This document shows positions 13,351 to 15,472 of a stretch of 64,000 bases of DNA, in pieces. How positions within the stretch are numbered: position 1 is the first letter of the stretch; each line of letters starts with the position of its first letter. Origin of the DNA: Candidatus Woesearchaeota archaeon (lineage in GTDB: Archaea > Nanobdellota > Nanobdellia > Woesearchaeales > UBA10216). The notes under the pieces were generated by a model. That model was not told the DNA's origin. It did not search any database and saw only the letters and a list, made by a program, of their open reading frames with translations. The DNA lies in assembly GCA_016192915.1 (NCBI GenBank), contig JACPTF010000010.1, forward strand, positions 48,804 to 112,803, in the 5' to 3' direction. The position numbers and the translations under genes are program-made.

Positions 13351-13422
13351 GCACACGTGGCCAAGTGGTAAGGCGGCCGCCTGCAGAGCGGCTATTCGGG
13401 GGTTCGATTCCCCCCGTGTGCT
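13351..13422 (+). tRNA. tRNA-Cys(GCA), intron-less
   Basis: Acceptor GCACACG/CGTGTGC. Anticodon stem GCCGC/GCGGC with loop CTGCAGA. T arm GGGGG-TTCGATT-CCCCC. Confidence 0.85.
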
Positions 13423-13653
13423 CTTTTTACAAAAACGCAAAATTTAAGATATTTCAACCAAGAGTTAGTCCATATGGCAGCGATAGGGTATGATTATCTG
13501 GATTATGATGAGATTAAGAAATGGTTGAAAGGAGGAGATATGCGTGAATTCAAACGGTAAAGAAGTAGATGAAAAATTCCTCGAAAAAATAAAAAAAGAC
13601 ATCGAGGATTACAAAGAATTTTTGATAGCTATAGGAAGGCTGTAAAAGTCGTT

Positions 13654-13684
13654 ATTCAGGGGTTCGATTCCCCCCGTGTGCTCT
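13654..13684 (+). repeat. 31-bp direct repeat of the tRNA-Cys 3' end (T-arm plus acceptor), 1 mismatch. Putative att-site duplication. First copy is at 13394..13424.
   Basis: attcaggggttcgattccccccgtgtgctct at 13654 versus attcgggggttcgattccccccgtgtgctct inside the tRNA. Confidence 0.7.
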
Positions 13685-14669
13685 ATTTAGTAGACGCCTC
13701 AATGCCGACAATTCTATAGCTGTCTTCAAAAATAGTGAATTGCTTGCCCAAAAGCTTTTCCGGATTGCTAACTTTACATGCTTCCAAAAACTCACTTACC
13801 TGATCGCCCACAAAGGTCCAACTTACAATTATTCCAGTGCTTCCTAGACCGCTCTCATTAAACGTAATGTGTAGTCCGTAAGGTGCTGGCGTTCCGTTAG
13901 TTGCCGGTGTTGGCCATTGTCCAATAAAGGCTTCTATTACCCATGCCTTTGTACTATGAGGGGCTCTGTTTAGCCCTGGTAAGAACCAGTTATTCCCGAC
14001 TTTTTCATACCTGAGTATTTTTTCCCAATAAGCTTGCGAATCAGACATATCCTCAATATTCCACTTTAGTTGGTATGAAAATGGACCTTCTGATTGTTTG
14101 CCGACTGCTATTCCCATTATGCTATCAAGTATGCCGTATAAGTATGCTATGCTTTTTTCGGATAACCCCAAATGTCCTGTTGGCGTCAAGACGAGGACAT
14201 CTTGCTGAGTATTCACAGAAAATGTTCCTCCAAACATATAAGGAGATCTTTGGTTGAGCAATTCGATAAATCTATTTGTCAATTTAGGATCGGCCAATCT
14301 TACTTCTAAGCCACTGATAACTTTTCCTTCTGGCTTTATCCTCTCTCTATTAAATATTGGATGATAAACCTGTGGGAGCGTATCTATCCATAAATCTCGG
14401 TGCGGTTCGTAAGAAACTGTTGCATATCCTATTAAGTGATTGACATTCTCTTCGGCAGTTTCTGTGATCATATTGAAGCGCTCTTTAAAGTAATCTACGC
14501 ATTCTACATAAAATTGTTTAATCTTTATAGGGTCTGATATGTGCCTAACGGCAAATTCCATAATTCCTATGGTTGGAGCCCCAGGACCTAGTAACGATCG
14601 TAGGTCTCTGGCTCTCCTTTCGTCATTTTCTATGCCTGGTTTGTTCTTCAGTATTTCTTCTAGCACCAT
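13683..14669 (-). CDS. Hypothetical protein in a lower-GC gene (328 aa)
   Basis: Long ORF whose AT-richness contrasts with the neighbours. It begins immediately after the duplicated tRNA-Cys 3' fragment. No family recognized. Confidence 0.5.
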   Translation of the reverse strand: MVLEEILKNKPGIENDERRARDLRSLLGPGAPTIGIMEFAVRHISDPIKIKQFYVECVDYFKERFNMITETAEENVNHLIGYATVSYEPHRDLWIDTLPQVYHPIFNRERIKPEGKVISGLEVRLADPKLTNRFIELLNQRSPYMFGGTFSVNTQQDVLVLTPTGHLGLSEKSIAYLYGILDSIMGIAVGKQSEGPFSYQLKWNIEDMSDSQAYWEKILRYEKVGNNWFLPGLNRAPHSTKAWVIEAFIGQWPTPATNGTPAPYGLHITFNESGLGSTGIIVSWTFVGDQVSEFLEACKVSNPEKLLGKQFTIFEDSYRIVGIEASTK

Positions 14670-14718
14670 ATGGTTTCTGGTTAGTAAATGCCTATTTAAA
14701 TCTTTCGTAAGTTGTTAC

Positions 14719-14904
14719 TTATAAGTAACACTTACTTCGGTGTGCTTTGGTTTTTAATTTAGGAATTATCCAATAAGCCGTAATTGCCGCAACGATTGTC
14801 ACGAGCCAAAAAGCAGCTGGTTTTATTACCCTAAAAACAAGACCGAGGAAATTGAGGACAACCACAGCTACCAGAATCAAACTGAGAACCTTCGGGAGAT
14901 TCAT
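14719..14904 (-). CDS. Small membrane protein (2 TM)
   Basis: Hydrophobic 61-aa ORF with a 4-nt overlap to the upstream MazG-like gene. Confidence 0.3.
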   Translation of the reverse strand: MNLPKVLSLILVAVVVLNFLGLVFRVIKPAAFWLVTIVAAITAYWIIPKLKTKAHRSKCYL

Positions 14905-15275
14905 AGTTTTTTCTCCTTTGCCTTTGCCTCAGTCCAAACCCTTTCCTCTTCCTCAAGCGTTACCTTCCTGCCTGTGACAAGAAAGGGCTTTCTCCGCTTC
15001 ATCTTCTCAAGAACGCTTCTGATTGAGTCCTCAGGCTTGAACCAGCCTTGTTTCTCGGCTATGAGCATGACCATAAGCGTATCCCAAAACAAGTCACCAA
15101 GCTCTGCCTTCAGGTTCTCGCTATCGCCCTTACCAACAGCTTCCTGCACTTCATCGGCTTCAGAAGCAAGCTGGGCAGAGTAGCTTTTTACGGTTTGCAT
15201 GTTAGCCCAGGGAGACTCAGCGAGGGCCTTCCTTGCCAGCTTCACAAAATCCTCAAATTCTTTCTCCATTTTCAC
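14901..15275 (-). CDS. MazG-like nucleoside triphosphate pyrophosphohydrolase
   Basis: All-alpha NTP-PPase signature EDSENLKAELGDLFWDTLMVMLIAE. Confidence 0.6.
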   Translation of the reverse strand: MKMEKEFEDFVKLARKALAESPWANMQTVKSYSAQLASEADEVQEAVGKGDSENLKAELGDLFWDTLMVMLIAEKQGWFKPEDSIRSVLEKMKRRKPFLVTGRKVTLEEEERVWTEAKAKEKKL

Positions 15276-15355
15276 ATCGTTGTTATTGTAGTTTTTTGAT
15301 CAACTTTTTTCCTAGTTGTCGTTTTTGGATCAACCCTTTTAAGAAAAGGGTTGAA

Positions 15356-15472
15356 TGGACTCGCCGGGATTTGAACCCGGAGCCTCATCCTGTCTCGTTC
15401 GCTTCTTTGGTTGAGCTTTCTTCCAAAGAAAGGTCATGCGAAGGATGCGTCATGCCGTTAGACCACGAGCCC
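15356..15472 (-). tRNA. tRNA-Ala(CGC) with a ~45-nt intron at the canonical 37/38 position
   Basis: Reverse complement reads GGGCTCG..CATCC-TTCGCA-[intron with hairpin tttctttgg/ccaaagaag]-A-GGATG-AGGCT-CCGGG-TTCAAAT-CCCGG-CGAGTCC-A. G3:U70 Ala identity pair is present. Confidence 0.7.

Follow-up and report, generated by a model that had tools for sequence, protein, structure and literature searches.

An insertion with three nested tRNA tails at the 3' end of tRNA-Cys in a Woesearchaeota genome

The insert and its nested tRNA tails

The window analysed here is a stretch of 64,000 nucleotides (nt) from a Candidatus Woesearchaeota archaeon (assembly GCA_016192915.1, contig JACPTF010000010.1, positions 48,804 to 112,803), and our subject is an insert of foreign DNA, about 1.32 kilobases (kb) long and specific to the window (~13425-14739), which lies directly behind its gene for the transfer RNA (tRNA) of cysteine. 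This gene, tRNA-Cys(GCA), is functional and is the target of the integration; it occupies positions 13351-13422/3 of the plus strand (ARAGORN; Rfam RF00005, 66.6 bits). From there on, the locus consists of the tRNA-Cys with its own tail (tail 1), a spacer of 229 base pairs (bp), a second tail of 31-37 nt, a gene for a protein of 328 amino acids (aa) with its putative promoter, a third tail of 9 nt and finally the conserved flank, and the insert itself is made up of the spacer, the tRNA fragment, the 328-aa gene and 70 bp upstream of that gene. The three copies of the tRNA tail decrease in length and are all in direct orientation, the outermost being the 9 nt at 14740-14748.

In an initial annotation, made by a model from the sequence alone, the last 31 nt of tRNA-Cys were reported to be repeated downstream with one mismatch, and this is indeed the case: the 3' end TATTCGGGGGTTCGATTCCCCCCGTGTGCTC (13393-13423) recurs at 13653-13683 with a single mismatch, a match that is not expected by chance and that appeared in 0 of 100 dinucleotide shuffles. 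A repeat search extended the pair to 37 nt with 95% identity (13393-13429 and 13653-13689, both on the plus strand, spacing 260). Copy 1, which takes the role of the left attachment (att) site, attL, covers the variable loop, the T-arm and the 3' acceptor strand together with 6-7 nt downstream, while copy 2, in the role of attR of the later event, is a former tRNA tail and not a gene. In fact its internal mismatch, a G-to-A change at 13658, breaks the T-stem, and no tRNA is called there by ARAGORN; nor does Rfam over 13600-13690 give any match to a tRNA model, even at E<=1, the sole match being 15 nt of the transfer-messenger RNA model on the T-arm, far below the gathering score. The repeat is accordingly not part of another tRNA gene, which would have spoken against the initial interpretation. 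Moreover, both long copies carry a lineage-specific base in the T-loop (TTCGATT) that is seen in no relative nor in the distant contig L090 described below.

The third copy, GTGTGCTTT (14740-14748, plus strand), is a 9-nt relic of the 3' end that tRNA-Cys originally had, and it marks where the insert ends on the right. It agrees with 13416-13424 at eight of nine positions, and the right junction reads ...CTTCG GTGTGCTTT GGTTTTTAATTTAGGAAT... When the window is aligned together with the empty sites of four relatives (L001-L004), GTGTGCTTT falls on the last nucleotides of tRNA-Cys (GTGTGCTCT) and the next bases fall on the conserved flank. Terminal inverted repeats were found at neither pair of insert ends; an imperfect inverted repeat of 22 nt (14548-14569 and 14760-14781) was judged to be at about chance level.

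The composition of the insert is foreign to its surroundings. The 328-aa gene had been described as visibly lower in guanine-plus-cytosine (GC) content, and the values bear this out, with 0.405 for the gene and 0.32 for the spacer against 0.476 for the window and ~0.50 for the neighbouring genes; in the k-mer check proposed along with that description, the interval 13423-14742 ranks first among 285 equal windows in tetranucleotide deviation (0.415 vs 0.274 +/- 0.032). Furthermore, nine independently assembled Logan contigs from different sequencing runs match 13090-15081 at 99.95-100% identity, both repeat copies being spanned by seven of the nine and the right junction by all of them, and since these independent assemblies agree, the arrangement is not an assembly artefact.

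The spacer between copies 1 and 2 (13430-13652; 229 bp when counted from 13424; assigned to no strand) is AT-rich and holds only short open reading frames (ORFs) of 28, 33 and 45 aa. Neither blastn nor tblastx matched it to any of 80 related loci or to another part of the window, and it is absent from the relatives. We read it as the remnant of a later integration event or as a miniature non-autonomous element. A resemblance of its first ~40 nt to the ancestral flank, suggested by alignment, had no support from BLAST and was treated as chance.

Empty sites and other inserts in the same slot

Syntenic loci were fetched by means of the neighbouring gene for topoisomerase VI subunit A (TopoVI-A) and aligned to the window. 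The closest relatives by this protein are metagenome-assembled genomes of groundwater Woesearchaeota with 88-96% amino-acid identity, and in the four named L001-L004 the identity is 91-96%; together with the NCBI record of the 328-aa protein given below, this places the genome among the DPANN archaea, for which intron-bearing tRNAs, TATA-box promoters and integrative elements of archaeal type are to be expected. In these four the order is tRNA-Cys, a membrane-protein gene and MazG, and then tRNA-Ala wherever the alignment reaches so far (L002-L004). The flanks are precisely joined at the tRNA 3' end in L001-L004, just as an empty site should be: the stop codon of the membrane-protein gene lies 0-3 nt from the end of tRNA-Cys, or the two overlap by 32 nt (L004, where the ORF runs into the tRNA antisense), whereas in the window the gene lies 1296 nt from tRNA-Cys. 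The 328-aa gene is absent from six of six close relatives covering the site (TopoVI-A 88-96%), the two closest included, and a long duplicate of the tRNA-Cys tail, or a second copy, occurs in none of 11 tRNA-Cys loci of relatives. Exact look-ups of the MazG protein and of a 181-aa protein gave no empty-site alleles from the same population.

As the order is the same in L001-L004, the membrane-protein gene, MazG and tRNA-Ala are conserved chromosome. In the initial annotation, the whole interval from tRNA-Cys to tRNA-Ala had been taken for an island that included the membrane-protein gene and MazG, the latter as a member of a family frequent in phages, and it is here that the picture has to be redrawn: the insert covers only ~13425-14739, both genes are syntenic chromosome in L001-L004 and not phage-like cargo, and tRNA-Ala belongs to the conserved backbone in L002-L004. 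MazG and a second tRNA are unfit as island markers here. The comparison with relatives that had been proposed as a check thus gave a divided answer, in that the 328-aa gene and the spacer are indeed missing from L001-L004, but tRNA-Cys does not stand directly before tRNA-Ala there, the membrane-protein gene and MazG lying between them.

In addition, the same slot is occupied by other DNA in two further relatives. L006 has an insert of ~450 bp (3885-4340) holding two tRNA genes, one of them with an intron (Rfam), and its right end is an 8-nt remnant of the tRNA tail, TGTGCTCT, analogous to copy 3 of the window; L007 has a different insert of ~0.5 kb with a frameshifted gene. The tRNA-Cys 3' end is a recurrent insertion hotspot in this clade, and the cargo in the slot differs among sister genomes, being an orphan gene, extra tRNA genes or a pseudogene. 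We also observed in L007 (13300-14460) an intron in the D-arm region of tRNA-Cys and, between tRNA-Arg and tRNA-Cys, a 97-aa ORF with a LAGLIDADG-like motif (ITGDGHL).

Upstream of the insert, the 5' side of tRNA-Cys is ancestral. In the window only 3 nt separate it from the end of a tRNA-Arg(UCU) gene with two introns (13104-13347, plus strand; exons 13104-13142, 13250-13271 and 13334-13347), whose exons, when spliced in silico, are called by ARAGORN as a perfect 75-nt tRNA-Arg(tct). The tRNA-Arg exons and a gap of 2-3 nt to tRNA-Cys are kept in L001, L003 and L006, and an intron-containing tRNA-Arg(tct) is called in L008; this conserved spacing indicates that the 5' part of tRNA-Cys is native and in its ancestral place, and that the insertion took place downstream. 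The introns of the tRNA-Arg measure 107 nt at the canonical position 37/38 and 62 nt in the T-loop, and the gene escaped ARAGORN and Rfam before splicing in silico. In L002 the tRNA-Arg is without the T-loop intron and an intron-like hairpin sequence sits after the tRNA instead, a difference which, as far as the sequences go, suggests gain, loss or movement of introns among these genomes.

On the other side of the insert stand the backbone genes, all on the minus strand. The membrane-protein gene (14719-14904, 61 aa) has orthologues in L001-L004, L006, L007 and L090, and its 3' end was remodelled by the insertion, the product now running from ...KAH into RSKCYL and a stop, for which first the tRNA remnant and then inserted DNA supply the codons. 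The new stop codon is contained in a near-perfect palindrome read from the sequence just inside the right junction (14707-14735, no strand; core GTTACTTATAAGTAAC at 14714-14729), which is possibly a terminator or a protein-binding site. The MazG-family nucleoside triphosphate pyrophosphohydrolase (14901-15275; Pfam PF03819, 1.2e-19) is syntenic in L001-L004, L006 and L007. The tRNA-Ala(CGC) gene (15356-15472) has an intron of 45-48 nt in the anticodon loop, on account of which it was missed by default ARAGORN and by the Rfam gathering threshold; it was found by ARAGORN with the option -i and by Rfam in E-value mode (49.9 bits), and its orthologue in L003 is intron-less. As to the identity of these two neighbours, MazG-like protein and tRNA-Ala, the initial annotation was right.

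The orphan gene and other features of the window

The 328-aa gene (13683-14669, minus strand), which would be the cargo of the earlier of two events, is intact. It had been said to start right after the repeat; the gene lies on the minus strand, so that it is the stop codon which abuts the repeat, overlapping the end of copy 2. Upstream of it, 14670-14706 (minus strand) would act as an archaeal promoter, as judged from a TATA-like box ATTTAAATA (14693-14701, plus strand) ~28 nt upstream of the ATG, and a motif CGAAAG(A/T)TTTAAA is conserved by alignment upstream of the homologue in L090. Being intact and conserved, with such a box ahead of it, this is a real gene of unknown function, and probably an expressed one.

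The protein is identical to NCBI HYY73_03135, a 'hypothetical protein' of Candidatus Woesearchaeota archaeon. In a word-indexed database of 5.8 billion proteins its sole relative besides itself is P0002 (50% identity), while an exhaustive profile search of 1.84 billion representatives gave 41 hits, six of them full-length or clear; the matches include proteins of ~220 aa that align to the N-terminal half only and proteins of ~118 aa that align to the C-terminal 90 residues only, and one Ig-like repeat protein was discarded as spurious. A scan of metagenomes for further homologues came back empty. An AlphaFold model built on the 41-sequence alignment (predicted local distance difference test 89.4, predicted template modelling score 0.78) shows a helical domain at the N-terminus, a ferredoxin-like one in the centre (~116-207) and a beta-rich one at the C-terminus; searched by Foldseek, it matches nothing at E<=1e-3 in PDB or BFVD. 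What emerges is a small, uncharacterised and confidently folding family with about six full-length or clear members, whose N- and C-terminal domains also exist as stand-alone proteins.

Several identities were considered for the protein and rejected. Nothing passed the curated cut-off or significance in Pfam, PHROGs, PADLOC or NCBIfam (best E 0.04-0.08), and its scanned relatives gave no Pfam, PADLOC or NCBIfam match. A viral connection, which had been suggested at the outset together with a search of viral databases, found no support in IMG/VR, in INPHARED by tblastn and blastn, in PHROGs (best only E 0.02-0.04) or among the BFVD structures (none at E<=1e-3 by Foldseek). Likewise there was no PLSDB match for a plasmid origin and no PADLOC match for a defence gene, and for an HUH (Y1) transposase no His-hydrophobic-His motif was seen, a 7-sequence alignment of the family having no invariant His. 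There is no evidence that the 328-aa protein is a recombinase.

The genomic context of the homologues is more telling for one of them than for the others. P0002 is encoded on the 1.8-kb contig L090, which is unrelated to the window and has the order glycosyltransferase-like gene, 55-aa orthologue of the membrane protein, 65 nt, homologue, 46 nt, and tRNA-Cys in antisense; the homologue thus occupies the same slot as the 328-aa gene, but without the spacer and the tRNA fragment, and the GC content of the contig, 0.42, matches that of the 328-aa gene. Such a context suggests lower-GC Woesearchaeota as the home of the gene, with related cassettes coming repeatedly to lie next to tRNA-Cys, and insertions of this sort appear to carry the family along. 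The neighbours of P0005 (33% identity) are a Fic gene, a gene of unknown function and thyA-DHFR, with a tRNA-Gln 2 kb away, and no repeat of the tRNA-Gln 3' end is among the direct repeats reported at that locus; P0011 adjoins kinase and phosphoesterase genes, and the contexts of both P0005 and P0011 are uninformative.

Some other features of the window deserve mention. Just 3' of tRNA-Ala, at 15318-15353, lies a hairpin motif TTTTTGGATCAACCCTTTT-NNNN-AAAAGGGTTG, which recurs with 92% identity directly upstream of tRNA-Cys in L002 (16378-16413), and similar hairpins, GACCTTTTT...AAAAAGGTC, are found in or beside tRNA-Arg introns of relatives; such a hairpin may be a mobile tRNA-associated or intron-derived element. 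Downstream of tRNA-Ala, in a region conserved in relatives, 15634-15695 (minus strand) gives a weak Rfam match to the C/D-box small RNA sR18 (19.9 bits, E 0.2), in which the C, D', C' and D boxes can be made out; a 61-aa ORF overlapping this match is possibly spurious. Another window-specific insert of ~510 bp (18403-18911, GC 0.39), which L002 and L004 lack, codes for a Cys-rich protein of 112 aa (18470-18808, minus strand) with an N-terminal hydrophobic stretch like a signal peptide and no Pfam match.

Further tRNA calls were made at 41645-41760 and 42036-42128 (minus strand) and at 49364-49493 (plus strand); among these further candidates, two intron-containing tRNA genes were found by Rfam alone, and a 93-nt 'tRNA-Phe' was called by ARAGORN alone and is below the Rfam gathering threshold. 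Since the ORF of a PfkB kinase (40661-41761) overlaps the tRNA at 41645-41760 with its N-terminus, its true start is probably downstream. In general, tRNA finders run with default settings overlook intron-bearing tRNAs in these genomes, among them the one that has two introns.

Mechanism, alternatives and comparison with known systems

In a Campbell-type integration into a tRNA gene, the element comes to lie between the regenerated tRNA and a displaced partial copy, after which the former downstream DNA follows. By this topology the element between tRNA-Cys and its partial copy is the 229-bp spacer and not, as had been assumed at first, the 328-aa gene; yet a third remnant of 9 nt lies beyond the 328-aa gene, which points to two nested or tandem events, and when the rule is applied twice every junction is explained. 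With a probability of about 0.6, we regard the locus as the scar of horizontal DNA insertion into the tRNA-Cys(GCA) 3' end by two successive site-specific integrations of this type. The first proposal of an integrated element therefore survives in its core, foreign DNA at the tRNA-Cys 3' end with a duplicated tail, though not in the extent and content of the island.

The two events may be pictured as follows. In the first, a small element with the 328-aa gene and its promoter would have recombined inside the final 7-9 nt of the tRNA (core GTGTGCT; att identity ~9 nt), displacing the original tail (GTGTGCTTT, 14740-14748) by ~1.06 kb downstream and replacing the 3' end of the overlapping membrane-protein gene. 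In the second, another element would have recombined with the regenerated tRNA over an att of 31-37 nt, the crossover being bracketed by a 26-nt block identical in tails 1 and 2, and the former tail would have been left as the 31-nt pseudo-fragment at 13653-13683, directly followed by the 328-aa gene. Of the second element only 229 bp are left between the repeats, which would be due either to a later deletion or to its having been a miniature element that was moved in trans. A tyrosine integrase is the most probable recombinase, and it would have been lost from the locus or have acted in trans. The hallmarks of tRNA integration are present, namely an intact tRNA on one side of the inserted DNA and, on the other side, its 3' part as a direct repeat (37 nt at 95%, plus the 9-nt remnant).

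Several points weigh against this reading. The insert holds no integrase or recombinase, as searches of Pfam and PHROG with the 328-aa protein and the small ORFs revealed, and no integrase gene stands beside an att site; the initial annotation had already noted that none is present. Moreover, none of the 57 window ORFs matches an integrase-annotated PHROG at E<=1e-5. The att and the cargo were looked for in IMG/VR, JGI metagenomes, INPHARED and PLSDB, the att scan of IMG/VR and the JGI metagenomes being one for exact patterns, and no free element, virus or plasmid carrying either of them turned up. With neither a recombinase nor a free element at hand, the order of the events and the action of an integrase rather than of host recombination are what we infer. 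The outer repeat has only 7-9 nt and fits equally well a transposase-type target duplication or microhomology-mediated joining, and all known autonomous integrative elements are far larger than the 229-bp spacer. Finally, the homologue P0005 is not flanked by tRNA repeats, so that the tie of the cargo family to tRNA sites is not universal.

Some of these points would be met by a single acquisition, in which a composite foreign fragment consisting of the spacer, a 3' piece of a donor tRNA-Cys and the 328-aa gene entered in one step with no dedicated integrase, either by homology-facilitated or microhomology-mediated illegitimate recombination or by host homologous recombination with a circle carrying a captured piece of tRNA-Cys. 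No recombinase gene would then be needed, a shared stretch of just 7-9 nt at the outer junction would suffice, and a donor like L090, where the homologue lies 46 nt from tRNA-Cys and where the GC content fits that of the 328-aa gene, could naturally bring gene and tail together. The other relatives, however, argue that the process was site-specific and not accidental: in L006 a different cargo ends at an 8-nt tail remnant at the same position, and L007 has yet a further insert. Moreover, the T-loop base unique to this lineage in both long copies argues that copy 2 is of local origin and not from a distant donor. We therefore hold a single acquisition to be unlikely.

It could also be asked whether the 328-aa gene is ancestral in the slot, the close relatives having lost it by deletion or by excision between the tail repeats. 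A homologue does fill the same slot between membrane-protein gene and tRNA-Cys in L090; but the absence from all six close relatives, the two closest included, would require several independent losses, the empty sites show no leftover repeats, and the composition of the gene is strongly deviant in the window while native-like in L090, all of which makes an ancestral gene quite improbable. A local tandem duplication of tRNA-Cys, with later decay of the 5' part of the second copy and without any relation to integration, would account for the near identity of the long copies and their common T-loop base. Yet the 229 bp between them resemble neither a tRNA 5' half nor any local sequence, a second tRNA-Cys copy is missing from the 11 loci examined, and the 9-nt third remnant, the foreign 328-aa gene and the inserts of L006 and L007 would stay unexplained; the chances of such a duplication are slim.

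Slightly slimmer still are those of a bolder idea, that the 328-aa family is a new kind of site-specific DNA-insertion protein, and promoter plus gene a minimal one-gene mobile element homing to the tRNA-Cys 3' end in DPANN archaea. What speaks for it is that the inserted module consists of this gene alone, that a 50% homologue lies beside tRNA-Cys elsewhere, that the central domain is predicted to have a TnpA/Rep-like ferredoxin fold, and that a palindrome stands at the end of the element; in a weaker variant, it is the 229-bp spacer that would be a miniature non-autonomous integrative element mobilised in trans. That the 31-nt copy should work as the 3' part of a tRNA that is split or permuted, like those of Nanoarchaeum or Caldivirga, may come to mind for a DPANN archaeon with heavily intron-bearing tRNA genes, but can practically be dismissed, because the fragment begins in the variable loop (to our knowledge not a position at which tRNAs are split), its G-to-A change breaks the T-stem, it matches no RNA family, a complete tRNA-Cys lies 230 bp upstream, and 13300-14800 holds no second 5' acceptor arm, the arm at 13351-13360 being the sole partner for both 3' copies.

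Compared with known systems, the proposed double integration shares with casposons and with transposons of the insertion sequence (IS) or miniature inverted-repeat transposable element (MITE) type at tRNA 3' ends the outer target duplication of 7-9 nt and the repeated use of one tRNA site. Unlike these, the window insert is without terminal inverted repeats, Cas1, polymerase or transposase; casposon target duplications are of ~14-15 bp, and the inner repeat of 31-37 nt is too long for a target-site duplication. The left-end hairpin of the IS200/IS605 system with its TnpA (HUH Y1) was not found in the insert either. A lone TnpB or Cas12f-like gene (36012-37169, plus strand; OrfB_IS605 and TNB domains) occurs 21 kb away and is the only transposon-related gene found among the window ORFs, none of the others matching a transposase PHROG; an adjacent TnpA was not looked for.

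Decayed islets, or remnants of 'gene capture', at tRNA genes of Sulfolobus have reportedly been described by She et al., and the present insert resembles such islets in that only the att repeats and a few cargo genes are left, the mobility functions are lost and the captured gene is intact. The Sulfolobus remnants usually keep int(N) or int(C) fragments of the partitioned SSV-type integrase adjoining the att sites; in contrast, six-frame translation gave no integrase-like ORF through either window repeat.

The closest parallel is offered by the tRNA elements of tyrosine recombinases, such as those with SSV-type or pNOB8-type integrases, pT26-2/TKV of Thermococcales and the thaumarchaeal elements. 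The integration of mobile elements in archaea routinely yields partial tRNA genes (PMC9897764); archaeal elements target the 3'-distal part of the tRNA with att sites of 8-69 bp, form tandem arrays and can give an overlapping gene a substitute stop codon (PMC6563490). The locus is alike in the 3'-distal target, in the regenerated tRNA with a direct repeat of partial tRNA, in the foreign composition of the insert, in the tandem reuse of the site and in the replaced 3' end of the overlapping gene, and its att lengths of 9 and 31-37 nt are within the archaeal range of 8-69 bp (PMC6563490, PMC9897764). It differs in that genes for an integrase (whole or split), for replication and for virions are all lacking from the insert, that its 1.3 kb fall short of the known autonomous elements by 1-2 orders of magnitude (the examples of PMC9897764 have 9-23 kb), that one of its modules is 229 bp without a gene, and that the host belongs to the DPANN archaea.

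Little has been documented of mobile elements and gene flow in DPANN archaea, and no case of a tRNA-end insertion of this kind was found described for them in the literature searched. The present locus is a clean, empty-site-resolved case of an insertion hotspot at the tRNA-Cys 3' end in Woesearchaeota, and what it adds to the integration scars at tRNA 3' ends, a well-known kind, is one that is small, two-layer and furnished with a single orphan gene.

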